DNA of 62,262 bases from Bacillota bacterium. Its GTDB lineage: Bacteria > Bacillota > Clostridia > Christensenellales > UMGS416. The translations under genes and the position numbers were made by a program. The notes beneath the pieces are model-generated. The model saw only the letters and a list, made by a program, of their open reading frames with translations. It did no database searches and was not told the origin of the DNA. Numbering within the stretch: position 1 is the first letter of the stretch; each line of letters begins with the position of its first letter. Below are positions 3,934 to 45,601 of the stretch, piece after piece. The DNA lies in contig JAEYRA010000148.1 in assembly GCA_023409755.1 (NCBI GenBank), forward strand, positions 1-62,262, given 5' to 3'.

Positions 3934-4338
3934 ATGGAGAAGCGTTATTTCCTCGTGTTCCCCAAACACGACGACCTGGAGGCCAGGTTCGCCCGTCTGG
4001 GCATGACTCGCAACGACCAGGGGCCGTGCCTGTGGGTTGATGAGGATCCCTGGTGTGAGATTGAACCGGCGGACTACTACCATGACGGCTTTTTTATGTA
4101 CGAACGGCAACCTGCCTTGCCTGTGGAGCGAGTGTGGGAGTTGTTTGTACACTCCCGCGACGAGGGCAACCGAATGGGAGCCATCAGCCAGATTTTGAAT
4201 CATGAGCCCCATGATGACATTCTGGCCCACTGGGCGGCGTTGCGGTCCCAATCCCCTTCCGGCAGAGCGGTTCGAAGAGCCTTGAAGACGCTGGAAACGC
4301 TCTATGTATTTCAGTTCGGTGAGAGGAAGCGGCCGTAG
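3934..4338 (+). CDS. Hypothetical protein
   Basis: RBS GGAGGAAGGA precedes the ATG at 3934 (MEKRYFLVFPKHDD...). I recognised no family. Confidence 0.5.
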   Translation: MEKRYFLVFPKHDDLEARFARLGMTRNDQGPCLWVDEDPWCEIEPADYYHDGFFMYERQPALPVERVWELFVHSRDEGNRMGAISQILNHEPHDDILAHWAALRSQSPSGRAVRRALKTLETLYVFQFGERKRP

Positions 4339-5289
4339 TTGAAACGGGAAGATACAAAGGACAGCAGCCGAAGTGCCACCGATGACGGTGGCAAGGCCGG
4401 CTTCCCCGCCGCCTGCCGGCTGTGTCCGCGTCGGTGCGGGGCCAATCGGCTGACCGGTGTGGGAGCATGCGGGGTGGGTGCGGGGCTGCGGGTGGCGCGG
4501 GCCGCGCTGCACCACTGGGAGGAACCCTGCATCTCCGGCACGAAGGGGTCGGGCACGGTGTTCTTCTCGGGCTGTGCGCTGCGGTGCTGCTTCTGTCAGA
4601 ATTACCCCATCAGCGCCGGTGCCTTCGGGCGGGACATTTCGGTGGAACGCCTGGCGGAGATCTTCCTGGAGCTGCAGGGCCAGGGGGCTCACAACATCAA
4701 CCTGGTGAACCCAACCCATTACGCACCGCCCATTGCCGAGGCTCTGCGGTTGGCCAAGGCCCGGGGCCTCACGCTCCCTGTCGTCTGCAACTCCGGCGGG
4801 TACGACTCGCCTGCGGTGTTGGCGGCCTTGGACGGGCTGGTGGACATTTACCTGCCCGACCTCAAGTACCGCAGCCAGCAGGCGTCGGCGGCTTACTCCG
4901 GCGCAGCGGATTATTTCGCCGTGGCGTCGCGGGCCATCCCGGCGATGCTTGCACAGGTGGGCCTGCCAGTCTTTGATGGCGACGGACTGTTGCGCCGCGG
5001 TCTCATCGTGCGGCACCTGGTGCTGCCGGGGCAGGCCGCCGATTCGCTGGCCCTGCTCGATTGGCTGGCCGGGGCACTGCCGGCGGGTAGCTTTCTTTTG
5101 AGCCTCATGTGTCAGTACATCCCCAGCCACCGTGCGGCCGAGCACCGCGAGCTCAATCGGCGGCTCACGACGCTGGAATACCAGAAGGTGCTGCGCCGTG
5201 CCGATGAGCTGGGCCTTGCAGGGTTCCGGCAGGAGCGGCCATCGGCCAGCGAGGCCTATGTACCCGATTTCAACCTGGAGGGTGTCTGA
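4339..5289 (+). CDS. Radical SAM protein (PflX-like pyruvate formate-lyase-activating-enzyme-related)
   Basis: CALRCCFC gives the CX3CX2C cluster motif. An N-terminal CxxCxxxC segment is also present. Overall similarity is to the PflX family. TTG start directly after the preceding stop. Confidence 0.8.
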   Translation: MKREDTKDSSRSATDDGGKAGFPAACRLCPRRCGANRLTGVGACGVGAGLRVARAALHHWEEPCISGTKGSGTVFFSGCALRCCFCQNYPISAGAFGRDISVERLAEIFLELQGQGAHNINLVNPTHYAPPIAEALRLAKARGLTLPVVCNSGGYDSPAVLAALDGLVDIYLPDLKYRSQQASAAYSGAADYFAVASRAIPAMLAQVGLPVFDGDGLLRRGLIVRHLVLPGQAADSLALLDWLAGALPAGSFLLSLMCQYIPSHRAAEHRELNRRLTTLEYQKVLRRADELGLAGFRQERPSASEAYVPDFNLEGV

Positions 5290-5299
5290 CGACTTGTAG

Positions 5300-5328
5300 T
5301 TGTCACAACGATACTTTTCCTGTATACT
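5300..5328 (+). promoter_or_regulatory. Sigma-A type promoter upstream of the YebC-family gene
   Basis: TTGTCA (5300-5305), 17-nt spacer, TATACT (5323-5328). Confidence 0.55.
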
Positions 5329-5388
5329 TATCAATTGCCAATGACAAAACACGCCGCCACTGGGCGGAGTTTGATACGGAGGGATTCG

Positions 5389-6129
5389 ATGTCCGGCCAT
5401 TCCAAGTGGGCAACCATGCACAGAAAGAAAGAAAAGATCGACGCGGCCAAGGGGAAGATCTTCACACGCCTGGGGCGGGAGATCATGGTGGCGGTCAAAG
5501 AGGGCGGCGGCCCGAACGTTGACGCCAACATGCGCCTGAGCGCGGTGATCGAAAAGGCCAAGGCCGCCAACATGCCCAACGACAACATCAAGCGCCTCAT
5601 TGAAAAGGCCGCTGGTGCTGCCGCCGGTGAGGGCTACGAGGAGATCACCTACGAAGGCTATGGCCCCGCTGGCATCGCAGTCATCGTCAATGTGCTGACC
5701 GACAACCGCAACCGCACCGCGCCGGAGGTTCGCCACCTCTTTGACAAGGCTGGCGGTTCCCTGGGTGCCAACGGCTGCGTCAGCTGGATGTTTGACCGCA
5801 AGGGTGTCATCGTGATTGAGGAACCGGGCAAGCACACCGAGGACGACATCATGATGGTGGCGCTGGAGGCCGGTGCCGAGGACATCGAGAGCGACGAGGG
5901 GATGTACGAGATCACCACCGCGCCCCAGGACATGCCCGCCGTGCGGGACGCGCTGGAGGCCGCCGGTATCCCCGTCGCGTCCGCCGAAGTCTCCATGGTG
6001 CCCCAGAACACCACCGAGGTAACCGGCGAGACCGCTGAGAAGTTCGTCCGCCTCATTGAAAACCTGGAGGACAACGACGACGTGGACAGCGTGTTCCACA
6101 ACGCCGACATCCCCGAGGAGTATCTGTAA
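5389..6129 (+). CDS. YebC/PmpR family DNA-binding transcriptional regulator
   Basis: N-terminus MSGHSKWATMHRKKEKIDAAKGKIFTRLGREI is diagnostic of the YebC family. ATG at 5389. Confidence 0.95.
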   Translation: MSGHSKWATMHRKKEKIDAAKGKIFTRLGREIMVAVKEGGGPNVDANMRLSAVIEKAKAANMPNDNIKRLIEKAAGAAAGEGYEEITYEGYGPAGIAVIVNVLTDNRNRTAPEVRHLFDKAGGSLGANGCVSWMFDRKGVIVIEEPGKHTEDDIMMVALEAGAEDIESDEGMYEITTAPQDMPAVRDALEAAGIPVASAEVSMVPQNTTEVTGETAEKFVRLIENLEDNDDVDSVFHNADIPEEYL

Positions 6130-6144
6130 GCCGAATGGAATCGT

Positions 6145-6172
6145 GGGGGAGTGGGATGCTCCCCCTTTTTTT
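6145..6172 (+). terminator. Intrinsic terminator after the YebC-family gene
   Basis: GGGGGAG...CTCCCCC stem followed by T7 (6166-6172). Confidence 0.7.
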
Positions 6173-6187
6173 ATTGGAGGTGCTGGC

Positions 6188-6598
6188 ATGGTCGTGATGA
6201 TTGTGGACGGGCAGGGTGGCGGCGTGGGCCGGGCGCTGGTAGCAGCCCTGCGGGCGAAGCTGCCGGCGGGGCACACCATCCGCGCGCTGGGCACCAACTC
6301 GGCGGCAACGGCGGCGATGCTGCGCGCCGGAGCAGACGAAGCCGCCACCGGGGAGCACGCCATTGTGCATAACGCGCCACGGGCCGACGTCATTGCCGGG
6401 CCCATCGGCATCGTGCTGGCCAGCTCTCTGCTGGGGGAGTTGACGCCTGCCATGGCAGCTGCCATTGCGGGCAGTGATGCCCAGAAGGTGTTGCTGCCCA
6501 TGGAGCGCTGTCAGACCCATGTGGTCGGCGCGGTGCCACTGCCCCTGGGGGAGGCCGTGGATCGTGCCGCTGACCTCATCCTGTCCCTTTTGGCCTGA
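6188..6598 (+). CDS. DUF3842 family protein
   Basis: MVVMIVDGQGGGVGRALV...ALGTNSAATAAMLRAGADEAATGE matches the DUF3842 pattern. ATG at 6188. Confidence 0.75.
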   Translation: MVVMIVDGQGGGVGRALVAALRAKLPAGHTIRALGTNSAATAAMLRAGADEAATGEHAIVHNAPRADVIAGPIGIVLASSLLGELTPAMAAAIAGSDAQKVLLPMERCQTHVVGAVPLPLGEAVDRAADLILSLLA

Positions 6599-6602
6599 TT
6601 CC

Positions 6603-6631
6603 TTGACCCGGAGAGCCGCACCCGCTATAAT
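6603..6631 (+). promoter_or_regulatory. Sigma-A type promoter for the cbiM operon leader
   Basis: TTGACC (6603-6608), 17-nt spacer, TATAAT (6626-6631). Confidence 0.6.
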
Positions 6632-6698
6632 AACCTGTGGTGCATTGGGTCATGAAGGCCCCGCCACCTGACCTGGACACCAACGTAGAAATGGACTG

Positions 6699-6753
6699 CC
6701 ATGAAGGCCGTCGGACCGCAGCAGCGGGCCGCGCTTCATGGTATTTTTGTTTT
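6699..6753 (+). terminator. Leader terminator (attenuator) directly upstream of the cbiM RBS
   Basis: CCATGAAG (6699-6706) pairs with CTTCATGG (6734-6741) around a GC-rich interior, followed by TTTTTGTTTT. A second CATGAAGGCC copy at 6650-6659 could form an alternative pairing. Confidence 0.6.
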
Positions 6754-6768
6754 GAGGGGGATTTTGTC

Positions 6769-7827
6769 ATGCACATGTCAGATGCGCTCATCAGCCCCGT
6801 GGTCGGCGGTGTGCTGTGGGCCGGGGCCGTGGGGGCCGCGGCGTACTCGGCGCGCAAGCTCGCCAAGGACGACCTGATGGAGAGCCGCAAGGTACCCATG
6901 ATGGGCGTCATGGGGGCCTTCGTCTTTGCCGCGCAGATGATCAACTTCACCATCCCCGGCACAGGTTCCAGCGGCCACATCGGCGGCGGATTGCTGCTGG
7001 CCGCCCTGTTGGGGCCGGAGGCTGGCTTCCTGGTGCTGATGGCGGTGCTCGCCATTCAGGGGTTGTTCTTTGCCGATGGCGGTCTGCTGGCCATGGGCTG
7101 CAACATCATCAACATCGGCTTCTATGCCTGCTTCCTTGCCTATCCTTTGATTTTCAAACCGTTGACAGGCAAGGGCACTTCCCCGGGCCGCACTACGCTG
7201 GCGGCGGTGCTGTCGGTTGTGGTCGGGCTGCAGTTGGGGGCGTTCTCCGTGGTGTTGGAGACGCTGCTCAGTGGCCGCACCCAGCTTCCTTTTGGCTCCT
7301 TCCTGCTGCTGATGCAGCCCATTCACCTGGCCATCGGTGTGGTGGAGGGGCTCATCACCGCGGCGGTGCTGGTGTTCCTGCGCCGCGCCGCGCCGGAGGC
7401 CCTGCCGGAGAGCCAGACGTCGGTTTCCGGCGGTTTCCCCAAGCGGGCGGTGGCGATCGTGGCTGTGTTGACGCTGGTGACCGGCGGCGCGTTGTCGTGG
7501 TTGGCCTCCACCCACCCCGATGGGCTGGAGTGGTCGATTGCCGGTGTCACCGGGGGGAGCGAGTTGGCCTCCAGCGGCGCGGTGTACGACTCACTGGGCC
7601 AACTGCAGGAGAAGACGGCCTTCCTGCCGGACTATGGCTTCCGCGCACCGGCTGACGATGCGGCGGCGGAGGCCGAAGCACAGTGGCCGGCGGTCAGCGC
7701 GGGTACCTCGGTGGCCGGCGTGGTGGGCAGCGCACTTACACTGGCGGTGGCGGTGGCGGCGGGCCTGCTGCTGTGGCTGCCCCGACGCAGGCGAGCGGCG
7801 CGGGCGGCCCACGGCGACGCCGCTTGA
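6769..7827 (+). CDS. cbiM: ECF-type Co/Ni transporter substrate-capture component CbiM/NikM with C-terminal PDGLE (CbiN-like) extension
   Basis: MHMSDALISPVVGG...AAQMINFTIPGTGSSGHIGGG is the CbiM signature. The C-terminal part contains THPDGLEWSIAG (PDGLE domain) and a terminal TM helix. RBS GAGGGGGA. Confidence 0.85.
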   Translation: MHMSDALISPVVGGVLWAGAVGAAAYSARKLAKDDLMESRKVPMMGVMGAFVFAAQMINFTIPGTGSSGHIGGGLLLAALLGPEAGFLVLMAVLAIQGLFFADGGLLAMGCNIINIGFYACFLAYPLIFKPLTGKGTSPGRTTLAAVLSVVVGLQLGAFSVVLETLLSGRTQLPFGSFLLLMQPIHLAIGVVEGLITAAVLVFLRRAAPEALPESQTSVSGGFPKRAVAIVAVLTLVTGGALSWLASTHPDGLEWSIAGVTGGSELASSGAVYDSLGQLQEKTAFLPDYGFRAPADDAAAEAEAQWPAVSAGTSVAGVVGSALTLAVAVAAGLLLWLPRRRRAARAAHGDAA

Positions 7828-7887
7828 CAGGGTAGGGTCGGCAACACAACAGGCGGGCCGGCGGCCCGCCTCGACTTGTCAATAGAG

Positions 7888-8116
7888 GTGGGATAAGGAT
7901 TGGGAGTATGGGCCGACCGACGGTTTATCCGGCGGGAGGGAGACATAAATCAATGGAAAAAGCAGACGCAAAAACTCGCCCGTGGCGAAACGTATCCGAT
8001 GAAAGCTGCATGAGTGCTATGGGTGGGTATCGTTCGGCGACATGCGCGGCGAACGATACGAGAAAACCGAAACAAGCAGTCTGAATCGCGGACGTCGCCG
8101 CAGCGGCGTACGTGAA
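7888..8116 (+). repeat. Copy 1 of the multi-hairpin intergenic element family, between cbiM and cbiQ
   Basis: It shares the ordered motifs with the other five copies: HP1 CGACGG-TTTAT-CCGGCG + GGGAGG; CGCC-CGT-GGCG + AAACGTA; ATGAG; GTATCGTTCG-GCGACATGCGCGG-CGAACGATAC; AACAAGCAGTCTGAAT; and CGCGGACGTCGC-CGCA-GCGGCGTACGTG. Confidence 0.85.
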
Positions 8117-8135
8117 CCGAAGGAGGAACGGGCAA

Positions 8136-25352: not shown

Positions 25353-25456
25353 GGGCTTGTTTCCCCCAACCTTGCCTTTGGGCAGGCGGGGGCGTATGAT
25401 GAGGAAAGCAGAGCGACGCCCGGCAAGCGGGCCGCTTTTTGATGAGGAGTACGAAC

Positions 25457-27821: not shown

Positions 27822-27918
27822 CTGGCATGGTTTTGCTACACAGGCGAGGAGGTGACGACCCAGGGGGCTTGCCCCTTGGGAATCCCCGCGATTCTTGTGT
27901 AGGCGAGTGCTGAAATGG

Positions 27919-28147
27919 CCCATTACGGAGCGAAGCCCCTGAACCCGCAGGCCGGTTCATCCGGCCAAGGGTCGAAGCAACTGGTGGTGGCACGCACCCC
28001 TTCCCGCCCGCAGGCGCGTCTCCTCGTAAAATTCATACGGCAAAATCAACAGAGAAGCCGCCCGGCGACCTGTGCGCCGGGCGGCAGTATGATAATCTCT
28101 GGCGAGCTTTCCTGCTCGCGACCGTCGCGAATGCGGCGGGCGCGAAC
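27919..28147 (+). repeat. Copy 2 (most diverged) of the multi-hairpin intergenic element family
   Basis: Motifs in the same order as the other copies: GGCCGG-TTCAT-CCGGCC (27950-27966); CGCC-CGCA-GGCG; GCCGCCCG-GCGACCTGTGCGC-CGGGCGGC; and CGCGACCGTCGC-GAAT-GCGGCGGGCGCG (28117-28144). It ends about 2-5 nt from the stop codon (28149-28151) of the convergent RidA gene. Confidence 0.75.
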
Positions 28148-28148
28148 G

Positions 28149-28610
28149 TCAGTCCTTGATAGAAAGGATCAGCTCGAACTCAGCGGCGGTGTTGCCCACC
28201 GGCATGTTGCGGCTGCCCATGATCGTGCGGGTGTGCACGCCACGGTTGCGGAAGACCTCATACAGCACGTCGGCAAAGCCGTCATAGACCTTGTCGAGGT
28301 CATGGAAGTCGTCGTCGCAGGCGATGAGCCCGAAGCCTTTGATGATCTGATCCACGCGATCCAGATCGCCGAGCTCCTCACGGATCATCATGAGCTGGAT
28401 GAGGGCGATGTGCTGGCAGGCGGCGTAGCCATCCTCAATGGTCAGGTCCCGGCCGATGAGGCCCTGACGGAACTCGGCGCAGCCGGAGCCGGAGGTGTAG
28501 AGCAGGTTGCCGACCCGGCGGCACCCAACGAGCGCCCGGCCCTTGTAGCTCAGGTAGTCGATGTCCAGTTCCTTTGCCTTTTTATCCAAAAGATCGTTGA
28601 TGGCAGACAT
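28149..28610 (-). CDS. RidA/YjgF/TdcF family (reactive enamine/imine deaminase-like) protein
   Basis: RBS AAGGAGGAG before MSAINDLL... About 153 aa with a YjgF-fold sequence. Last gene of the operon. Confidence 0.85.
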   Translation of the reverse strand: MSAINDLLDKKAKELDIDYLSYKGRALVGCRRVGNLLYTSGSGCAEFRQGLIGRDLTIEDGYAACQHIALIQLMMIREELGDLDRVDQIIKGFGLIACDDDFHDLDKVYDGFADVLYEVFRNRGVHTRTIMGSRNMPVGNTAAEFELILSIKD

Positions 28611-28623
28611 GTTCTTCTCCTCC

Positions 28624-29139
28624 TTACTTGCGAATCTGAATGATGGCGTCGCAGACGATCGGCACGTTGTTGTTGAGGTTTGTGGCGCCCATATCGGAGC
28701 GGGCGTGCATGCCGCGCTCGCCAAAGACCTCGGTCATGAGGTCGGTGAAGCCGTCCGCCACCTGGGGCAGGTCGCCGAAGCCCGGCACGCCGTTCACCAG
28801 TGCATAGACTTTCAGAATGGCCTCCACATTGTCGAGGTCGCCCAGCGCGTCCTTGATGATCGTCAGCATGTTGATGGCGATGAGGCGCGCGGCCTTGTAG
28901 CCCTCTTCCACGCTGAGTTCGCCACCCAGGCGGCCGACGAAGGCCGGCTTGCCGTCGGGGCCGGTGGGCTCCATGGCGGAGATGAACAGCAGGTCCTCGT
29001 GAATCTTGTATTTGCAGGTGCCGCGGCCGGTGCGATAGGGGGTCTCGCCCTTCGGCTTGTTCCCTACGACATTGATTCTTGCGTCGTCGTCAAACAGTTG
29101 CAGACCCAGGTCCGCCAGTCTCTTTTCCGCAATGCTCAT
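28624..29139 (-). CDS. RidA family protein (paralog of 34334..34801)
   Basis: RBS AAAGGAGG before MSIAEKRLADLGLQL... About 171 aa. Clear paralog of the MGIAEQKLQKMGIQI protein. Confidence 0.8.
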   Translation of the reverse strand: MSIAEKRLADLGLQLFDDDARINVVGNKPKGETPYRTGRGTCKYKIHEDLLFISAMEPTGPDGKPAFVGRLGGELSVEEGYKAARLIAINMLTIIKDALGDLDNVEAILKVYALVNGVPGFGDLPQVADGFTDLMTEVFGERGMHARSDMGATNLNNNVPIVCDAIIQIRK

Positions 29140-29161
29140 ATTAGTGCCTCCTTTGATTGAT

Positions 29162-30295
29162 TTAGCGCGCCGCTTGCAGCACACGGGTTTGGGCGATGAT
29201 TTCCCGAACGACGACGGATACCTCGTCGTCCGTCAGCAGCAGGGGGTTGATGAAGATGCCGTTGGTGCAGGTGTCAGGCCCTGTCTTGCAGATGAGGATG
29301 CCGGGCGTGCCCTCCCGCAGGACTTTCACCAGTTCTTCCGCAGGAACGTCGACCATCAGCTCCGCTGCCGAGCGGGGGTAGCACTGGCCGGTGGGGCCGG
29401 GGAATACCCGTTTGCAGCGGAAGAGACCGCTCTTGTTGAGAGCCTCGTTGATGTACTGCACACGCGCTTCGATGGTGGCAACCTTGCAGTCCACCATGCC
29501 GGGCTCCAGGTAATCGCGGATGGCGGTGTACAGCCCCACGATCTCCTCCCGGCCGATCTTGCTGGAGCGGCCGATGCCGTGTTTGGGCGCGCCCACCAGC
29601 GGGAAGCCGTCGAGCAGCCACTTCTTGCCCACCACCAGGCCGCTGCCCTGGGGGCCGCGCATGCCCTTGCCGCCGCTGAACACCGCCGCGGCCGCGCCGG
29701 CCCCGGTGAAGCGCCAGAGGTTCTCAATGGGCGGGAGCTGTGCCGCAGCGTCCACCACCACGGGCACGTTGTGGCGGTTGGCCACGGCCATCGTGTCCTC
29801 AAAGGACAGCGACGTGTCGCGGCAGCCCCACAGGTCAAAGAAGAAGATGCCCGCAGTGCGATCGTTGATGGCCGCTTCCAGTGCTTGGGTGTCGTGGGGT
29901 TTGGCGTCCACCACGATGACCTTGGCGCCCGAACACTGCAGTGCTTTGTCGTAGCCGGTGCGCTGGCCAGCCATCATGATGAGCTCATTCTTGGCCATGG
30001 AGCTCGTGTCCGGCAGCAACTTGAGAAGCTCGGGGTCGCCGCCAGTAACGAGCAGTGATGCACAATACAGCAGCCCTGATGAGGCGCCGGCGGTGATATA
30101 GGCCCCCTCGTTGTGGGAGAGTTCGGCAATGCGCCGGCCGGTTTTCTCCTCTAGGTCAGCCAGCTCCACAAAGTTGCGCGACGCGGCGTGCATGGCGTCC
30201 ATGACGTGGTCGGGCATGCGGGAACCGCCAAAGATGGAGACGGTGTCGAGTGCGTTGATGTAGGGCTTAATGCCCAGTTCCTGATAGATGCTCAT
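29162..30295 (-). CDS. SelA-like PLP-dependent enzyme (DgaE / D-glucosaminate-6-phosphate ammonia-lyase-like family)
   Basis: FSGGKGMRGPQGSG matches the SelA-family PLP-lysine motif (FSGDKLLGGPQ). 377 aa with no N-terminal tRNA-binding extension. ATGA overlap with the upstream SDR. Confidence 0.75.
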   Translation of the reverse strand: MSIYQELGIKPYINALDTVSIFGGSRMPDHVMDAMHAASRNFVELADLEEKTGRRIAELSHNEGAYITAGASSGLLYCASLLVTGGDPELLKLLPDTSSMAKNELIMMAGQRTGYDKALQCSGAKVIVVDAKPHDTQALEAAINDRTAGIFFFDLWGCRDTSLSFEDTMAVANRHNVPVVVDAAAQLPPIENLWRFTGAGAAAAVFSGGKGMRGPQGSGLVVGKKWLLDGFPLVGAPKHGIGRSSKIGREEIVGLYTAIRDYLEPGMVDCKVATIEARVQYINEALNKSGLFRCKRVFPGPTGQCYPRSAAELMVDVPAEELVKVLREGTPGILICKTGPDTCTNGIFINPLLLTDDEVSVVVREIIAQTRVLQAAR

Positions 30296-31162: not shown

Positions 31163-31969
31163 TCACCCCCAATCCTGTACGTGGGCCAGCGCCTGAATAC
31201 CGCCGTCCACCGGCAGGTCCTCACCGGTCATAAAGGCCGAAAGGTCACTGGCCAAGTAGAGTGCCCCGTGGGCGGCGTCCTCCACGGTGGCGGGGCGGTG
31301 CAGCGGCTGTGTATTGTCGTAGCCGTTTCCACCCCGGAAACGCGGCATTTCCTGCTGGTAGGTGCGGCCCACACAGCCGAGGTTCATGCCCAGCAGCAGG
31401 TTGTTGCACCGGATGCCCCAGCGGGCGTAATCCATGGCCACCGCCCGGCCGTAGGCATTGAGCGCCCCCTTGCTGGCGGCATAGGCTCCCACCTGGGGCA
31501 CAGAGCCCCTGGTATAGTCGCTGGAGATGTTAACGATGGTGCCGGCGCGGGCCTCCAGCATGCCCGGCAGGAAGAGTGTGGTGCACCGCACGGCGCAGAG
31601 GACGTTGAGCTCCATCATTGCCCGGTACCTGGTCAGGTCTACTTGGTGGGCGTAGGCCCGCTCGAAGTGTCCGGCGTTGTTGATGAGGCAATCCACCCGG
31701 CCGAAGCGGCGAAGCACCTCGCGGCAGGCTTCCTCGATTTGGGCCCGGTCGGCCATGTCTGCCGGCAGGAAGAAGCTGCCTGGCGACAGGGCTTTGAGCT
31801 CCGCCTCCGTCCGGCGGCCCGCTTCCTCGTCAATGTCGGTGATGGCCACCGCTGCACCCTGCTGAGCGAAGAGCAGCGCGATGGCCCGGCCCACGCCGGC
31901 CGCGCCGGCGCTCACGAAGGCCCGTTTTCCTTCCAGCAATCGATCGGTTTGCATGACTGCCTCCATCAT
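31163..31969 (-). CDS. SDR family oxidoreductase
   Basis: GKRAFVSAGAAGVGRA motif and catalytic YAASK. ATGA overlap with the upstream gene. Confidence 0.85.
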   Translation of the reverse strand: MMEAVMQTDRLLEGKRAFVSAGAAGVGRAIALLFAQQGAAVAITDIDEEAGRRTEAELKALSPGSFFLPADMADRAQIEEACREVLRRFGRVDCLINNAGHFERAYAHQVDLTRYRAMMELNVLCAVRCTTLFLPGMLEARAGTIVNISSDYTRGSVPQVGAYAASKGALNAYGRAVAMDYARWGIRCNNLLLGMNLGCVGRTYQQEMPRFRGGNGYDNTQPLHRPATVEDAAHGALYLASDLSAFMTGEDLPVDGGIQALAHVQDWG

Positions 31970-32697
31970 GGGTACACCTGCTTGTGGGCGATGAGGGTGG
32001 TGCCGCCGTCGGCGACCATTGTCTCGCCGGTCACGTGCTTGGCCATGTCGCTGGCCAGGTACAGCGCCGTGTTGGCGATTTCCTCCGCCCCCAGGCGGTG
32101 GGGCAGCACCTGTGTCTCGGCCCAGAAGGTGTCGGGGTGTTCATTGTCCAGGAAACTGGCGCTGTAGAGCAGGCAGTTGGACCGGACATCGAACTTGCAG
32201 TAATCCATGGCGATGGCCTTGGAGAGGGCCGCCACCGCGCCGGACCCGGCAGCCGTGGCTGATACGCCGGGCACCACATACCGGGCATAGACCGGCAGTA
32301 CGTGCACGAACGCGCCGTGGCGGCGCTCCATCATGCCTGCAACCGCCAGCTGCACGGTGCGCAGCACGGTTTCCGGCCCGCGGGCCAGGGCGTCCCACAC
32401 GTCGGCTTCGTCTCCGTCGGCGGCCAGGGTGGGGTGGTGGCCGGTAAATATCGTCACCACCACGTCGATGTGGCCAAGATGGGCGAGCGCCGCTTGCCCG
32501 GCTCGCTCCATGCCCTCGTCGTCGTTGGCGCTCGCGGCAAACAGCGGGCAACCAGGTACGGTGGTGTCGTCCTCGCTGCCCAGCAGCGCGACCTGTGCCC
32601 CCTGAGCGGCAAAGAGTGCCGCCACTGCCCGCCGAAGCGGGCCGCCGTCGCCGGCGATGAGGGCGGTTCTATCATTGAGAAGTGCAGAGTAACGCAC
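31966..32697 (-). CDS. SDR-fold protein with degenerate cofactor and catalytic motifs (probable non-catalytic paralog)
   Basis: It aligns to neighbouring SDRs, but the Gly-rich motif is IAGDGGPLRRA and the YxxxK position reads ATAAGSG (the paralogs have AYAASKG). Confidence 0.7.
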   Translation of the reverse strand: MRYSALLNDRTALIAGDGGPLRRAVAALFAAQGAQVALLGSEDDTTVPGCPLFAASANDDEGMERAGQAALAHLGHIDVVVTIFTGHHPTLAADGDEADVWDALARGPETVLRTVQLAVAGMMERRHGAFVHVLPVYARYVVPGVSATAAGSGAVAALSKAIAMDYCKFDVRSNCLLYSASFLDNEHPDTFWAETQVLPHRLGAEEIANTALYLASDMAKHVTGETMVADGGTTLIAHKQVYP

Positions 32698-34333: not shown

Positions 34334-34801
34334 TCAGCTCTTGAGCTTGACGATCATATCGATGACCATGGGGACGTTGTCGGTGTGGTTGCCACAGCCC
34401 ATGGCGGCGCGGGCGTGCTGCCCCCGGTGGCCGAAGGCCGACGTGAACACATCCGAGAAGCCATTGGCCACAGCCGGCATGCCGTAGAAGTCGCCGCCGC
34501 TGTTCACCAGGGCCAGAGCCTTCACGAAGTAGTCGATGCGGTCGAGGTCGCCAATGGCATCCTTCAGGGTGGCCAGCATGCTGAGAGCCGCCAGACGGCC
34601 CGCCTCGTAGGCGTCATCGGGGGTCAGGTCTACGCCGATGCGGCCCTGCATCAGTGCCTTACCGTTCTGGTCAAAGGGCCCGTGGCCGGAGATGTACAGA
34701 AGGTCCCGGTACCGGCGCACCTTCAGCACCCCTTTGCCCTTGCGGTCGATGCTGTCGATCTGGATGCCCATCTTTTGGAGTTTCTGTTCGGCGATGCCCA
34801 T
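34334..34801 (-). CDS. RidA family protein
   Basis: 155 aa, YjgF fold, paralog of 28624..29139. Confidence 0.85.
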   Translation of the reverse strand: MGIAEQKLQKMGIQIDSIDRKGKGVLKVRRYRDLLYISGHGPFDQNGKALMQGRIGVDLTPDDAYEAGRLAALSMLATLKDAIGDLDRIDYFVKALALVNSGGDFYGMPAVANGFSDVFTSAFGHRGQHARAAMGCGNHTDNVPMVIDMIVKLKS

Positions 34802-34830
34802 TGCATATCCCTCCTGTTTGGTTGTTGGAC

Positions 34831-36861
34831 TTATTGTTTGCCCAGTTTGCGGGCGTATTCGATGGTGTAGTCAACCACGATGTCCAACTCGGACGGTTCG
34901 AGGTTCAGCGGGTTGATGGTGATGGAGTTGGTGTCGCGCCGCGCCCCCACCAGGATGCCGGGCTCACCGGCCTTGAGCGCCGCTGCCAGTTCCTCGGCCG
35001 AAGCGCCGTTGGTGAGGACGGCCTCCACCCAGTGGTAGGTCTGGCCCGTCGGGCCGGGCCACAGCTTTACGCAGCGGAACATGCCCGACGCCGTCAGCTC
35101 GTTCATGATGTATTCGCAGCTGTCGTCGATGTACTTCTGTCGGGCTTCCACCACGCCATCGGCCAGGAAGTGCTTGACCGCCGTGTAGACCCCGGCGATT
35201 TCCTCCCGCCCGGCCTTGGAGGAACGGCCCACACCCTGGTTGGGCGGGGCGATCATGGCGAAGCCATCAATGAGGGCCTTCTTGCCCACGACCAGACCGC
35301 CCTGCTGGGGCCCGCGCAGGCCCTTGCCGCCGCTGAAGAGCGCCAGGTCGGCGCCGCATTCCTGGGTGTAGTACCACAGGTTCTCCTTGGGCGGCAGCTG
35401 GGCTGCGCCGTCCACGATGACGTACACATCCCGCTCGTGGGCAATGCGCACCACTTCGGCAAGGGGCAGGCCCCGGGCGGCGAAGTAGTGGGTGTCGAAG
35501 TAGACGATGGCAGCGGTGCGGTCGGTGATGGCGGCGATGAGTTCTTCAGCAGTGGTCATCTCGGGCTTGCCAACTTCGATGAGTTTGGCGCCGCTGACCT
35601 TGATGGCGAAGTCGTAGCTGTTTCGGTGGCCGGCCATGACCAGGATTTCATTCTTCATGCCGGTGGTGTCGGGCAGCTGCTTCAGGAGTGCCTGGTTGGC
35701 ACCGCCGGCCATGCACACCGCTGAGGAGAGCAGGATGCCCGCCGAAGCACCGCAGGTGATGTAGGCAGCTTCGTTGTGGGTGAGTCGCGCCAGTTCCTCT
35801 CCAACGCGTCGTTGCAGCTGAGCCAGCTCCACAAACTCGTGGGCCGCCTCACGCATGGCGTCCAGGGTTGGCTGCTCCATGCGGGAGCCACCAATGATCG
35901 ACATGGTGTCCCAGGCGTTGATGTAAGTCTTGACGCCTAATTCCTTGTACACGTCCATGGGTTCGTTTCCTCCGTGTTGTCTGAATTCCCTTTCCTTCCG
36001 CTGGTACCCGATGCGCTTGCTGAGCGGGATCCCCGCGGGGTAAAGGTAATCGTCAATCTTATGGATTTGCAGGGCAGAGCCGCCATCCACCAGCAGGGAG
36101 CAGCCGGTGATGGCGCTCGACATATCGCTGGCGAAGAAGAGGTGGGCGTTGGCGATGTCGTCGACCATGCCTTCCATGGGCAGGGGGTTGTAAGACGCCT
36201 GCAGCGAGCGTTTGCGGTCCTGGGGGGACAGCCGCTCGTGGAAGGGTCGCGCCAGCGAGGAATACACCCCGCCGGGCAGCACCGTGTTGACGCGGATGCC
36301 GTCCTTGCCATGCTCCAGGGCTAACAGCCGCGCCAGGGCGTTGATGGCCCCCTTGCTGGCCGCGTAGCTCGAGAAGATGTTGACCGTCGCCACCGAGTGG
36401 ATGGATGAGGTGAACAGCACGCTGCCGCTGTGCCGGGCTACCATGCCCGGCAGGAAAAACCGGCACAACTGCGTGGCACTGCGTACGTTTACGCTCATGA
36501 TTCGCTCGAAACTCTCGTCCTTCAGGTCCCCGAGGAACTCGCGAATGTTGATGCCCACGTTGTTGTCCAGAATGTCCAGCCCGCCAAAGCGCTCCTGCAC
36601 CGCCTGGCACAGCGCGTCGATGTCTTCCGGCACCCCGGTGTCGGTGCGCAGAAAGAAGCACCGGGGGTCGATGGCCTGCAGTTCCCGCTCGGTCTGACGG
36701 CCCTCTTCCACCACAATGTCAGCGATGGCGACCACCGCGCCGTGCTTGGCAAAGGTCAGGGCGATTTCCCGCCCGATGCCTTGGGCACCGCCGGTGACCA
36801 GAGCGCGCTTACCCTCGAGCAGCCGGTCATAGTTGATTGGTTTGATGATTTCCTCACTCAT
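34831..36861 (-). CDS. Fusion protein: N-terminal SDR oxidoreductase + C-terminal SelA/DgaE-like PLP enzyme
   Basis: Start MSEEIIKP (ATG at 36861, overlapping the upstream gene by 8 nt). The SDR part has TGGAQGIG and YAASK. Residues from MDVYKELGVKTYINAW (35958 downward) are paralogous to 29162..30295, with PLP-lysine motif FSGGKGLRGPQ. No stop codon lies between the modules. Confidence 0.75.
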   Translation of the reverse strand: MSEEIIKPINYDRLLEGKRALVTGGAQGIGREIALTFAKHGAVVAIADIVVEEGRQTERELQAIDPRCFFLRTDTGVPEDIDALCQAVQERFGGLDILDNNVGINIREFLGDLKDESFERIMSVNVRSATQLCRFFLPGMVARHSGSVLFTSSIHSVATVNIFSSYAASKGAINALARLLALEHGKDGIRVNTVLPGGVYSSLARPFHERLSPQDRKRSLQASYNPLPMEGMVDDIANAHLFFASDMSSAITGCSLLVDGGSALQIHKIDDYLYPAGIPLSKRIGYQRKEREFRQHGGNEPMDVYKELGVKTYINAWDTMSIIGGSRMEQPTLDAMREAAHEFVELAQLQRRVGEELARLTHNEAAYITCGASAGILLSSAVCMAGGANQALLKQLPDTTGMKNEILVMAGHRNSYDFAIKVSGAKLIEVGKPEMTTAEELIAAITDRTAAIVYFDTHYFAARGLPLAEVVRIAHERDVYVIVDGAAQLPPKENLWYYTQECGADLALFSGGKGLRGPQQGGLVVGKKALIDGFAMIAPPNQGVGRSSKAGREEIAGVYTAVKHFLADGVVEARQKYIDDSCEYIMNELTASGMFRCVKLWPGPTGQTYHWVEAVLTNGASAEELAAALKAGEPGILVGARRDTNSITINPLNLEPSELDIVVDYTIEYARKLGKQ

Positions 36862-37897
36862 GGGGGTTGCCCTCCTTCCCGTCAAAGCAAATGCAGGTGG
36901 GCGTCTGGGCTGGCACATCGCCCACCGGTGTCAAAGATCCGTCGCCCAGGTGGAAGCGCAGCACCGACAGGGTGTTGCCCCGTTGGTTGGCGCACAGCAC
37001 AAAACGTCCGTCGGGGGTAAAGGCCATGTCCCGGGGGAAGTTCCCGCCGCAGTCAAACCAGCGAAGAGCCCCCAGCAACCCGTTGGCCTCCACCTGGAAG
37101 ACGGCGATGGCGTTCTGCCCGCGGTTGCCCACCAGCAGGAACCGGCCATCCGGCGACAGACGAATGGGGCCGCAGTAACTCGTTTCGCTCCAGCCCGGCG
37201 GCAGGGCGTCCACACGCTGCACCTGGTTCAGCTCTTCCCCTTGGAGGGCATAGACCAGCACATGGTTGTCCAACTCGCCGCAGACGTAGAGGAAGCGGCC
37301 ATCGGCGGCAAGCACCCCATGGCGGGGGCCAGCGCCAGTCGGTGCCTCCACAGCCCTGACACGAGCGGTACTCGTAGTATCGCCAGCGGGGAACAAAAAC
37401 AGCCGGTCCATGCCCATATCCATGACACAGAGTTGCGCACCGGGCAGGGGGAGAGTCTGATGGAAGTGAGAAGCAACCCCGGCGGGGGCACAGGGCAGGT
37501 CGCCGGCGCGGGTGGTGGCCGCCGGCTGCAGGCTGCCGTCAGGAGCCAGGGGCAGGGCGGCCAGCGCGCCGGAGAAGCACGCCGTGTACACCATGCCATC
37601 GTGCAGCAACAGATGACAGGGGCCCGGTGCGCCGGTGGGCTGGGTGTTGAGGAGCCGCATAGCGGAGCCTTCCACGGCATAGGAAGCCACAGCCCCGCTG
37701 GTTTCGCCGTTCCATTGGGCGACCTCCAGCGCGGCATAGAGCCGGCTGCCGTCCTCATTTGTGATGATGTGACTGGGATTGAGCACGGGTGTGACGCCGG
37801 CCGGCGTCAGACTGCCGTCCTCCCCCAACAGGAAGGTGAGAATGCCCGTTGCACCGTCGTTGGTGCAGGTACCGATTCGAACCATGATGGCAGGCAT
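36854..37897 (-). CDS. Lactonase, 7-bladed beta-propeller family (6-phosphogluconolactonase-like)
   Basis: Repeated ...DG..LY... blade motifs, NPSHI, PCHLLL. 347 aa. First gene after the ROK regulator. Confidence 0.75.
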   Translation of the reverse strand: MPAIMVRIGTCTNDGATGILTFLLGEDGSLTPAGVTPVLNPSHIITNEDGSRLYAALEVAQWNGETSGAVASYAVEGSAMRLLNTQPTGAPGPCHLLLHDGMVYTACFSGALAALPLAPDGSLQPAATTRAGDLPCAPAGVASHFHQTLPLPGAQLCVMDMGMDRLFLFPAGDTTSTARVRAVEAPTGAGPRHGVLAADGRFLYVCGELDNHVLVYALQGEELNQVQRVDALPPGWSETSYCGPIRLSPDGRFLLVGNRGQNAIAVFQVEANGLLGALRWFDCGGNFPRDMAFTPDGRFVLCANQRGNTLSVLRFHLGDGSLTPVGDVPAQTPTCICFDGKEGNPHE

Positions 37898-43047: not shown

Positions 43048-43275
43048 GGCCTTTCGCGGTTGCCGCTGTGGCGACAGCCGCGATTCAGGCAACTTGTCCT
43101 TGACATGTGTGTCGCCCGCCGTACATGCCGCCGGGCGACATCGTAGCTTTCTCGCTCATGCTGTGTCTGGGAAACGATGTTCGCTTGTGGGCGGGTTTCT
43201 GTTTCCTGCCTGTGCCAGATACACTGTTCCTCCCGCCGAATGAATCGGCGGTCGGTTCGGGGTTGACCTCTTGAA
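43048..43275 (-). repeat. Copy 3 of the multi-hairpin intergenic element family (only minus-strand copy)
   Basis: The reverse complement carries CCGCCG-ATTCATT-CGGCGG+GAGG, CGC-CCACAA-GCG, ATGAGCG, GTCGCCCG-GCGGCATGTACGG-CGGGCGAC, CTGAAT and CGCGGCTGTCGC-CACA-GCGGCAACCGCG + AAAGG. Confidence 0.85.
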
Positions 43276-43292
43276 ACAGCTTTTTAGGTGTT

Positions 43293-43324
43293 GCGCCCGT
43301 CAGTTCCGCTGGCGGGCGTTTTTC
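43293..43324. terminator. Terminator-like hairpin between the GH38-like gene and pta
   Basis: GCGCCCGTCAG-TTCCG-CTGGCGGGCG followed by TTTTT, with an A-run on the other side. Confidence 0.6.
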
Positions 43325-45231: not shown

Positions 45232-45347
45232 ATGGGGTTGCCGCAAGGCGTGAATGGAGGTTGATCTGAAGAATCCCCGTAGGGGTTTGTCAGACAGAAA
45301 AACCGGGACGCACATCTGGGTGTTGGCGCAGGCTGTCAAAAAATCGG

Positions 45348-45573
45348 CACAGGAAGAAATAGAGTGAGCCGAGCGCCGGTTCATCCGGCGGGAGGGAGCA
45401 ATTGTGGGCGTGAATACCAAATAAAATCCCGCCCGTAGGCGAAACGTATTTCCCCCAGAACCCGTATGGACGCTATCACTTGGTATCGTTCGGCGACATG
45501 TGCGGCGAACGATACGACGAAATGGGAACAAGCACTCTGAATCGCGGCTGTCGCAACAGCGGCAGACGCGAAA
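45348..45573 (+). repeat. Copy 4 (reference copy) of the multi-hairpin intergenic element family
   Basis: HP1 CGCCGG-TTCAT-CCGGCG (45374-45390) + GGGAGG; HP2 CGCC-CGTA-GGCG + AAACGTA; ATGGA; HP3 GTATCGTTCG (45483-45492) / 13-nt loop GCGACATGTGCGG / CGAACGATAC (45506-45515); GAACAAGCACTCTGAAT; HP4 CGCGGCTGTCGC-AACA-GCGGCAGACGCG (45543-45570). Confidence 0.9.
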
Positions 45574-45601
45574 AACCGGGACGCACGTCTGCGTCCCGGT
45601 T
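45569..45601 (-). terminator. Intrinsic terminator of degV (minus strand)
   Basis: AACCGGGACGCA-CGTC-TGCGTCCCGGTT. On the minus strand it is followed by TTTTTC, which overlaps the 3' end of repeat copy 4. Confidence 0.7.

Follow-up and report, generated by a model that had tools for sequence, protein, structure and literature searches.

Is a small intergenic sequence with a conserved multi-hairpin structure, found over and over along one stretch of DNA, a functional fold or a mobile repeat? The question is raised by the 62,262-nt contig JAEYRA010000148.1 of an uncultured Bacillota bacterium (assembly GCA_023409755.1; Clostridia, Christensenellales, UMGS416), which was analyzed at its full length and is referred to below as the window. 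A preliminary description of this DNA, made from its sequence, had reported six copies of an element with four hairpins (HP1 to HP4) and had attributed their pattern to selection on a fold rather than to simple recent duplication. Selection on the fold was supported, but the mobile-insertion nature of the element had not been captured. Since the elements have terminal repeats, are flanked by a duplicated hairpin in about half of the cases and vary in occupancy, there is no need to choose between "selection on a fold" and "mobile DNA repeat". On balance, the family probably consists of lineage-specific, non-autonomous mobile elements resembling MITEs (transposable elements of miniature size with inverted repeats), which are moved in trans by a palindrome-targeting transposase and bear a selected single-strand fold.

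The places and strands of the six copies were confirmed in three ways. In a MAFFT alignment, six stretches were alignable across ~245 nt, with indels and without a shared frame. A core-profile nhmmer search of the window returned the same six matches and none further, and R1, a covariance model (CM) of 245 positions and 36 base pairs run with filters off, gave exactly six strong matches of about 125-237 bits, beyond which it detected just short single-hairpin echoes in the 62 kb. The motif GGCGACATGTGCGGCG with up to three mismatches was matched 9 times (2.5 expected), and the HP4 pattern 11 times (0.33 expected), both expectations being based on dinucleotide shuffles. The stem letters previously given for HP1, HP3 and HP4 are all correct when compared with the sequence and the alignment, and it also holds that no conserved reading frame, nor any open reading frame (ORF), is involved. 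Whilst the copies are real, their boundaries had to be moved: the element starts ~15 nt further upstream, in copy 4 at 45331 instead of 45348. Each of the copies spans a core of ~245 nt, which extends to ~275 nt with a 3' hairpin and to at least 320 nt with optional modules (Table 1). The extra length of copy 5 is due to a 75-nt module within HP3 (47986-48060), and this copy also has an extra 3' hairpin (48147-48173). Copy 2 is a member of a diverged subfamily, called type B.

Further copies were found in Bacillota bacterium OH_SBrB_79, a metagenome-assembled genome (MAG; JAEWRW01, GCA_023398815.1), which accounted for all 23 matches when two motifs were searched exactly in a collection with one genome per species, which does not include the window. 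With relaxed motifs, the scan of genome contigs added further loci of this MAG and otherwise chance matches in GC-rich genomes. Building a covariance model had been proposed as a check, and R1 recovered 66 copies in 328 kb, i.e., the six in the window and 60 in ~270 kb of the MAG, roughly a tenth of which was examined. This sample is biased, as most MAG loci (designated by L numbers) were fetched via a copy, and L001-L021 via the exact HP3-loop and HP4 motif. For the main subfamily, some of the conservation of that motif hence stems from the sampling itself.

The claim that stems covary while loops and linkers are conserved was borne out by two pairing tests. The first was blind to structure and used a MAFFT alignment of 38 copies with a model of four helices plus a pseudoknot: 91% of the modeled cells were standard pairs, compared with 31-50% when the partners were slid, and two-sided changes were found at 13 pairs, with seven of the nine HP3 pairs covarying. 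In the second, an alignment of all 66 copies, which is model-fitted and hence leans toward the model, 28 of the 36 pairs showed two-sided changes (in 233 cells), 90.3% of the cells paired versus at most 56% in slid controls, and none of 500 shuffles reached the observed values. In HP3, eight of the nine modeled pairs had two-sided changes in the latter alignment and 96% were paired; the closing pair of HP1 shows A-U/G-C covariation. Thus, the four helices are maintained via compensatory changes across subfamilies. Also old copies, 9-14% apart, still pair at 90%. Among the six copies in the window, the 13-nt loop of HP3 differs at 7 of 78 positions, with an overall column identity of 55%. A singleton-depletion test for selection after insertion was discarded as void, because fetching L001-L021 by the exact HP3 loop produces an ascertainment artefact. 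That the copies are plain segmental duplicates with an unselected structure would agree with the evident gene conversion among them, but this explanation is refuted by the pairing statistics and by the flanks, which are unrelated between copies, and is hardly credible any longer.

The proposed pseudoknot between the HP1 loop UUCAU and the downstream AUGAG/AUGGA is compatible with the 38-copy alignment, in which 94.7% of the cells are paired. It is not proven, because the changes are one-sided only; probably, compensatory changes maintain it across subfamilies as well. G·U pairs are more frequent than A·C combinations, with 56 versus 21 in the stems and 40 versus 5 in the pseudoknot, which indicates that the plus strand is the folding strand, as RNA or as single-stranded DNA (ssDNA). 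RNAalifold and single-sequence folds concur on HP1-HP4 only and differ in their long-range pairings. In copy 4, HP4 has no bulge and no GNRA loop, and HP1 and HP4 are unlike each other.

The 75-nt module of copy 5, module B, is a three-stem structure (...GCAACAC-UUC-GUGUUGC...CUCUCAA-CGAUUC-NNNN-GAAUCG-UCUGCC...), with a long stem that covaries by itself. All of its 16 occurrences are within elements, at no fewer than three insertion points, i.e., in the 5' arm of HP1, in the 3' arm of HP1 and in HP3. In its behavior, it is like a mobile domain, of RNA or DNA, that belongs to these elements alone. Further inserts are found in the 3' arm of HP4 (~45 nt) and after HP3 (~135 nt). Expansions at helix tips around an intact core are typical of structured RNAs, and no other observation argues as strongly that it is as a folded strand that the fold matters.

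The ends of the elements suggest how they reached their sites. In nearly every copy, the left end reads (T)CA-GAGTGTCTACAAA, or GGCTGTCAAAAAA in place of GAGTGTCTACAAA in the copy-4 subfamily, and the foot of a GC-rich terminator hairpin lies 1-3 nt upstream of it. The sequence of this target hairpin is locus-specific and different at each locus, and an A tract is often found upstream of it. At the other end, long-form copies run past ...GACGCGAAAGG into a conserved hairpin, GGCTGTCGAC-TTT-GTCGACAGCC-TGA, which is present in all 12 of them. When the right end of the long form is reverse-complemented, TCAGGCTGTCGACAAAGTC, it agrees with the left end, TCAGAGTGTCTACAAACCC, in 14 of 19 positions, so that the ends form a terminal inverted repeat, albeit an imperfect one; given this match, it is unlikely that the 3' hairpin is an old target hairpin acquired by 3' transduction. 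In short forms, the terminal repeat is reduced to a weak GTCTRC core. HP4 is a more degenerate palindrome of the motif GGCTGTCG(A)C, the same motif as in the terminal repeat. Matches to the left-end and right-hairpin motifs away from an element core were absent from ~370 kb.

The target hairpin itself is often duplicated. An automatic test detected direct repeats in the flanks of 13 of the 31 full copies, with scores of 13-28 against a maximum of 11.5 in controls consisting of mismatched (shuffled) flank pairs, and more duplications are apparent by inspection. The repeat comprises the entire target hairpin, 13-33 bp; the upstream duplicate is without a T tail, which the downstream duplicate retains. 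A length that is variable and equal to that of the target hairpin is atypical for a MITE. All 12 long-form copies have the duplication and most short forms have none, which amounts to approximately half of the copies overall. In the window, two copies have it: copy 4, with 45297-45318 repeated at 45570-45591 (score 20), and copy 5. Two type B pairs are arranged head to tail ~40 nt apart (L002 5980-6448 and L014 3254-3704), which fits insertion beside the HP4 hairpin of an earlier copy. Another copy, L013 6019-6261, lies directly after the 3' hairpin of L013 6330-6574.

Table 1. Coordinates of the copies, their structural parts and their target duplicates (window positions, unless an L number is given)
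Feature	Position	Strand	Remarks
Copy 1	7874..8117	+	Between cbiM and cbiQ, sense; preceded by hairpin 7852-7870; CM 177 bits
Copy 2, type B	27905..28147	+	Downstream of gpmI, convergent with YjgF-like gene; CM 136 bits
Copy 3	43052..43293	-	Antisense, between stop of GH38-like gene and its terminator 43293-43323; CM 175 bits
Copy 4, reference, short form, c4-type subfamily	45331..45573	+	Core element; CM 217 bits
Copy 5, core of long-form copy	47827..48146	+	Downstream of smpB; CM 206 bits
Copy 6	49723..49967	+	Directly after terminator 49695-49722 of TrpB-like PALP gene; CM ~237 bits
HP1, copy 4	45374..45390	+	CGCCGG-UUCAU-CCGGCG, then GGGAGG
HP2, copy 4	45430..45441	+	CGCC-CGUA-GGCG; on minus strand, short hairpin followed by T-rich tail
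Candidate pseudoknot partner AUGGA, copy 4	45466..45470	+	Pairs with HP1 loop UUCAU, 45380-45384
HP3, copy 4	45483..45515	+	10-bp stem, conserved 13-nt loop GCGACAUGUGCGG
HP4, copy 4	45543..45570	+	12-bp stem with G·A mismatch; resembles terminal-repeat palindrome GGCUGUCG(A)C
Upstream target duplicate, copy 4	45297..45318	+	GAAAAACCGGGACGCACATCTG; terminator decayed in 3' arm
Downstream target duplicate, copy 4	45570..45601	+	Intact bidirectional terminator, stem 45576-45599; GHMP-kinase and DegV genes
Upstream target duplicate, copy 5	47804..47824	+	ACGCCGCCTTGGGGCGGCGTT, without T tail
Downstream target duplicate, copy 5	48174..48197	+	ACGCCGCCTTTGGGCGGCGTT, with T tail; repeat part 48174-48194
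3' hairpin, copy 5	48147..48173	+	GGTTTGTCGAC-TCT-GTCGACAGCC-TGA; bears right terminal inverted repeat
Module B, optional 75-nt structured module	47986..48060	+	In HP3 of copy 5
Other module B copies	L017 5588-5662, 5777-5851; L038 350-423, 531-605; L001 5890-5964; others		

The window is syntenic with contig 47 of the MAG (JAEWRW010000047.1) at 89-94% nucleotide identity. A comparison of occupied and empty sites had been suggested, and it revealed that occupancy differs between these genomes, which are ~10% apart. At the site of copy 2 (L071 3483-3727), the MAG also has an element, with a 3' half of another variant that includes three compensatory pairs in HP3. At the site of copy 3, ends and flanks are the same, the interior resembles the copy-4 subfamily, and 135 nt are inserted after HP3. 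At the site of copy 4, the downstream terminator flank is 100% identical, the element belongs to a different subfamily, and an unrelated hairpin precedes it. The site of copy 5 contains instead a 0.9-kb low-GC insert (L199 17209-18178, JAEWRW010000047.1) with a 272-aa ORF for which no Pfam match is on record; insertions seem to favor the spot downstream of smpB. Copy 6 is missing in the MAG and in a third lineage, L291, which both keep the same terminator. In the MAG, 36 nt are found in its place (L199 19650-19700), including GAGcGTGTCTAgCCC, which resembles a remnant of the left end. In L291, the terminator AAAAGGCGCGGC-AGAT-GCCGCGCCTTTTT is at once followed by unrelated sequence, i.e., the site is empty; hence, the terminator was already there when copy 6 was inserted right behind it, without duplication. 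Conversely, a diverged element that contains module B separates pgk from tpiA in the MAG (L071 730-1038), and the window has a 92-nt spacer there (25353-25445), in which an HP4-like remnant, GCCTTTGGGCA...GAGCGACG, is seen; it looks like the element was largely deleted in the lineage of the window. Thus, members of the family have been gained, lost and converted since the split between window and MAG. Gene conversion between copies is evident, with mosaic replacement at shared sites. With 9-14% divergence even between the nearest copies, a very recent burst has not taken place, and there is no sign of current activity.

With 245-320 nt, no coding capacity, dispersed copies, terminal inverted repeats and a target duplication, the elements have the features of MITEs apart from a known autonomous partner, of which no trace was found in ~370 kb. 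In the favored scenario, a transposase supplied in trans would bind the terminal repeats and attack both strands at opposite feet of a palindromic target, and subsequent gap repair would duplicate the whole palindrome, as for IS1630 of the IS30 family. The terminated gene would thereby keep a hairpin, and the downstream duplicate would keep hairpin and T tail. Short forms may have arisen from long forms by loss of the two adjacent 3' palindromes, a conjecture of which L062 and L008, with a T tract directly after ...GCGAAA, would be examples. Gene conversion would homogenize the copies and create mosaics. The fold of the plus strand would be conserved since it matters for the persistence of the element: most likely, it would keep disrupted gene 3' ends terminated or protected as an RNA in either orientation, as a passenger structure, and less likely it would be needed for mobilization itself.

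Known systems with similar properties exist. For IS1630 of Mycoplasma fermentans and ISMhom-1, insertion sequences of the IS30 family, the target duplications are given as 19-26 bp (PMC2853133) and as 16-26 bp, with only approximately half of the copies having one (PMC3317919). These insertion sequences enter inverted repeats or terminator-like palindromes that vary in sequence and duplicate the whole palindrome, and also here the duplications, 13-33 bp, comprise locus-specific hairpins and occur in approximately half of the copies. However, IS1630 and ISMhom-1 are autonomous, occur in low-GC Mollicutes, encode a DDE transposase and have a length of 1.2-1.4 kb and terminal repeats of 27 bp, whereas the elements described here are gene-less, 245-320 nt long, and have imperfect repeats of 16-19 bp and an internal multi-hairpin fold. 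Insertion-site-specific repeats have been described that left the flanking ORFs intact (PMC7648426). Regarding the structure, bcr1 of the Bacillus cereus group is transcribed and its RNA structure is kept by compensatory changes (PMC3184786). Like bcr1 and RUP, BOX and SPRITE of the pneumococcus, the present elements are small, non-coding, high-copy, strain-variable and intergenic. However, bcr1 is a two-stem cruciform of ~155 bp with fixed 5-bp duplications, whereas here four helices, a possible pseudoknot, modules of 45-135 nt, hairpin-length duplications and terminator targeting are found, and the resemblance is functional only. In function, the flanks come closest to IS1630-type insertion, and the nearest counterpart of a mobile repeat kept by compensatory changes is found in the bcr1-like structured MITEs of Firmicutes.

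Several observations weigh against a MITE-like element moved by a palindrome-targeting transposase. A tblastn search of 370 kb with eight queries (including IS30, IS5, IS1 and IS3 transposases, reverse transcriptase, integrase and resolvase) found nothing, the IS30 query being the distant InsI of Escherichia coli and the 370 kb a partial sample, ~10% of the MAG. An all-against-all ORF comparison for an autonomous partner yielded paralogous host genes only; the "repeats" at L038 were tandem genes for methyl-accepting chemotaxis proteins. Duplication upon insertion is inferred, as no empty counterpart was found for a duplication-bearing copy: the site of copy 5 is occupied in the MAG, and relatives that are at most 87% identical are too diverged. 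Approximately half of the copies, the short forms, lack the right repeat and the duplication, and copy 6 entered after a T tract, with 36 nt replaced instead of a hairpin duplicated. The distance between the nearest copies, without evident current activity, is a further point. Moreover, a DDE mechanism acting on double-stranded DNA gives no reason for the covariation in the hairpins, and the fold therefore needs a separate explanation. Long duplications (0-60 bp) have also been attributed to the IS1182 family, which a literature search did not confirm.

Such an explanation could be provided if mobility depended on RNA. The element could be a template for reverse transcriptase, like a short interspersed nuclear element (SINE), priming at nicked hairpin feet, or an RNA cofactor for a hairpin-targeting recombinase. 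We consider this unlikely, though it deserves to be taken seriously. Priming at nicked hairpin feet would also yield variable, hairpin-length duplications, and an RNA-based process would agree with the strong covariation of four helices with conserved loops between subfamilies as far apart as 55% identity, with the G·U excess on the plus strand, with structured modules at helix tips around a preserved core, as in large RNAs, with the left end always at the 3' foot of a hairpin, as is generally known for group IIC introns, and with the failure of tblastn to find a DDE transposase in the 370 kb. However, terminal inverted repeats are a hallmark of DNA transposons, neither a 5'-truncated series nor tails of A or U were seen, no reverse transcriptase was detected in the same 370 kb, which is a weak test, models of group II introns and others in Rfam had no match, orientation is random relative to transcription, and a consistent promoter was not found. 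The more specific proposal that the fold, as RNA or ssDNA, is required in cis for mobility, as a SINE-like template or as a cofactor guiding an enzyme to the feet of terminator hairpins, seems a shade more doubtful still. If it held, transposition would here depend on RNA, target structures and involve modular RNA expansions, unlike the mechanisms known for IS30, IS200/IS605, IS110 and group II introns.

Group IIC introns insert right after intrinsic terminators or attC stem-loops and recognize structure rather than sequence. The left end of the present elements, 1-3 nt from a hairpin foot, is reminiscent of this, but with ~245 nt, they have no domain V/VI and no GUGYG...AY ends, and they do have a target duplication and terminal inverted repeats. 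A group IIC intron was rejected on these grounds and because no group II model of Rfam matched even at E<=10, HP4 has neither bulge nor GNRA loop and no reverse transcriptase was found in the 370 kb searched. Neither is their sense-only insertion seen: in co-directional intergenic regions, 9 copies are in sense and 15 in antisense orientation. Relative to local GC skew, the orientation is unbiased as well (35 vs. 28). Random orientation in both respects fits a symmetric, double-stranded target better than a sense-only intron or lagging-strand ssDNA.

The same numbers bear on the idea of an ssDNA element of the IS200/IS605 or REP/RAYT kind, which would be a PATE-like derivative, possibly with a scaffold for a guide RNA, and would depend for its movement on an HUH tyrosine transposase that reads hairpins. 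Hairpins are indeed located near both ends, the fold could equally be one of ssDNA, and hairpins are the targets. Nevertheless, this idea is largely refuted, and we consider it very improbable: target duplications are present, HP1 and HP4 are dissimilar, the left junctions have only "CA" in common instead of a conserved target motif of 4-5 nt, the bias in GC skew is absent, the HEARO and IS605-orfB models of Rfam are silent, and the flanking hairpins are locus-specific and not REP-like. For the same reasons (duplications, junctions, skew counts, silent models), an IS200/IS605 derivative or omega-RNA element was dismissed. In REP systems, the repeated unit is a 20-40-nt palindrome itself, often with GTAG and linked to RAYT. 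The present family resembles REP, BIME and REPIN sequences as abundant GC-rich extragenic palindromes at gene 3' ends, but here, the flanking palindromes all differ and it is the 245-nt multi-hairpin element that is repeated, on which grounds a REP-type element was rejected, with no search aimed at a RAYT gene. The omega RNA of IS200/IS605 and the bridge RNA of IS110 occur together with a gene for TnpB, IscB or a recombinase, and their guide loops vary. They share with the present elements that a structured RNA of 150-300 nt with covarying stems is found at a transposon end, but lack a long target duplication, whereas here, the loops are conserved and no such gene is nearby. A CRISPR-like repeat duplication or a casposon was rejected, as no array and no cas genes were seen.

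The genomic context was assessed for 55 copies with a gene caller based on GC content per codon position, which was checked against Pfam results. Convergent intergenic regions contained 28 copies (51%), co-directional regions 24 and divergent regions only 3, as is expected for terminators, and the uneven numbers of sense and antisense copies mentioned above amount to no preference relative to transcription. The copies occur where genes end, in many cases with a convergent stop codon 6-23 nt away. Copy 4 has the 3' ends of two convergent genes on either side and copy 1 is inside the cbiM-cbiQ operon, whilst the host gene of copy 3 has kept its terminator intact, with the element between it and the stop codon. 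After correction of two gene-call errors, every intergenic gap of at least ~250 bp in the window turned out to hold an element. A riboswitch or other 5' leader, or a T-box, was rejected on account of this distribution and of the position of copy 4.

The location at gene 3' ends could mean that the elements serve the host as an RNA or 3'-end module, i.e., as terminator, stabilizer of mRNA 3' ends or protein-binding RNA, with their mobility incidental or extinct. In line with such a function, HP2 on the antisense strand is a hairpin with a U-rich tail, copies 9-14% apart are still 90% paired, and bcr1 offers the precedent of a transcribed mobile repeat with compensatory changes (PMC3184786). However, gains, losses, truncations and replacements of copies distinguish genomes that are ~10% apart, both orientations occur, relatives at 80-90% protein identity have the same genes without elements, and the extra conservation of the HP3 loop in the main subfamily is an artefact of locus fetching; we therefore hold a host-serving module to be improbable. 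In the preferred reading of a transposase-moved element, HP2 and HP4 read as hairpins on the antisense strand too, which would make insertions at gene ends tolerable either way.

At 45426-45445 (-) and 43179-43196 (+), antisense HP2 and the A-rich tract before it resemble a short intrinsic terminator, with a stem of 4-8 bp and a T-rich tail. Judged from its sequence, antisense HP2 could stop transcripts that enter the element from a convergent gene. A consistent internal promoter was looked for among the copies and not found, which, together with the random orientation, weakens the simple reading as an expressed small RNA. In the copy-4 subfamily, the leader at L018 (2635-2680) has a sigma-70-like arrangement, TTGTCA-N17-TATAAA, and that of the window (45331-45372) a weaker CTGTCA...GAAATA; the leader of the main subfamily has no such arrangement, and any internal promoter would therefore be subfamily-specific.

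So far, the family has been seen in just two related uncultured Clostridia-like genomes and is lineage-specific; ENA additionally holds a metagenome contig 99.98% identical to the window. The expectation of high abundance, raised from about one copy per 10 kb in the window, was supported: in the unbiased 28-kb syntenic overlap, the window has five copies and the MAG four, i.e., ~1 per 7-10 kb. Outside these genomes, R1 had no credible match in the 2.0 Mb that surround smpB and a GH38-like gene in 158 other Clostridia, and the element was not found in closer relatives reached via the TrpB-like protein (lineages at 87%, 80% and >=90% identity). In all, ~2.1 Mb from around 160 other Clostridia were without a credible match. 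A 21-kb locus of GCA_023435705.1 contained no elements. A 29-base three-part pattern, validated on the window and the loci, had 0 matches in JGI metagenomes, a relaxed two-motif pattern only chance matches in viral contigs, and blastn against phage and plasmid collections returned nothing. The remark that no named RNA family could be assigned agrees with Rfam (15), which gave 0 matches at gathering thresholds over the whole window and chance-level matches only at E<=10 on copies 2-6. The element is thus absent from the reference libraries searched, i.e., Rfam and the phage and plasmid collections.

The proteins encoded in the window are of a housekeeping nature only. No transfer-messenger RNA (tmRNA) gene lies beside smpB in the window or the MAG, ARAGORN and Rfam giving no match, and the possibility that the element beside smpB is a tmRNA was rejected accordingly. 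A convergent 333-aa ORF (49948-50949, minus strand) terminates within copy 6; its last codons and stop codon are therefore provided by the HP4 region of the element. Its orthologue in the MAG stops within the different 36-nt sequence found there. Tandem paralogous genes for methyl-accepting chemotaxis proteins (L038 711-3152, 3892-6435 and 7055 onward; L006 ~4263-6887) each have an antisense type B element within ~23 nt of the stop codon, which was probably duplicated along with the gene. The window also contains a paralogous block encoding a YjgF-like and an aminotransferase-like protein, at 28149-30295 and 34334-36918 (-). Short-chain dehydrogenase genes are located between the two blocks (31163-32697), and the second block copy is fused to such a domain; this paralogy is unrelated to the repeat family.

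Structured, non-autonomous bacterial repeats are already known as a kind, and the element described here is not a new class; it is a previously uncatalogued, terminator-targeting repeat of that kind. Its 245-nt fold, which covaries unusually well and is absent from Rfam, may protect transcript 3' ends, offer a binding site to a protein or serve mobility as a cofactor; if the fold did act as a cofactor or template for mobility, the element would be much more interesting. For annotation, a covariance model would mask the repeats in related MAGs and flag assembly breakpoints. If our interpretation is correct, a few percent of the genome of this uncultured Clostridia lineage would consist of one structured, terminator-colonizing element, and the ~70 sampled insertions, probably hundreds genome-wide, would constitute a natural series showing how duplication of a whole target hairpin preserves termination for both neighboring genes. 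IS1630-type behavior would then no longer be confined to a few insertion sequences of Mollicutes but also be found in a Firmicute of high GC content and in an element that is not autonomous.

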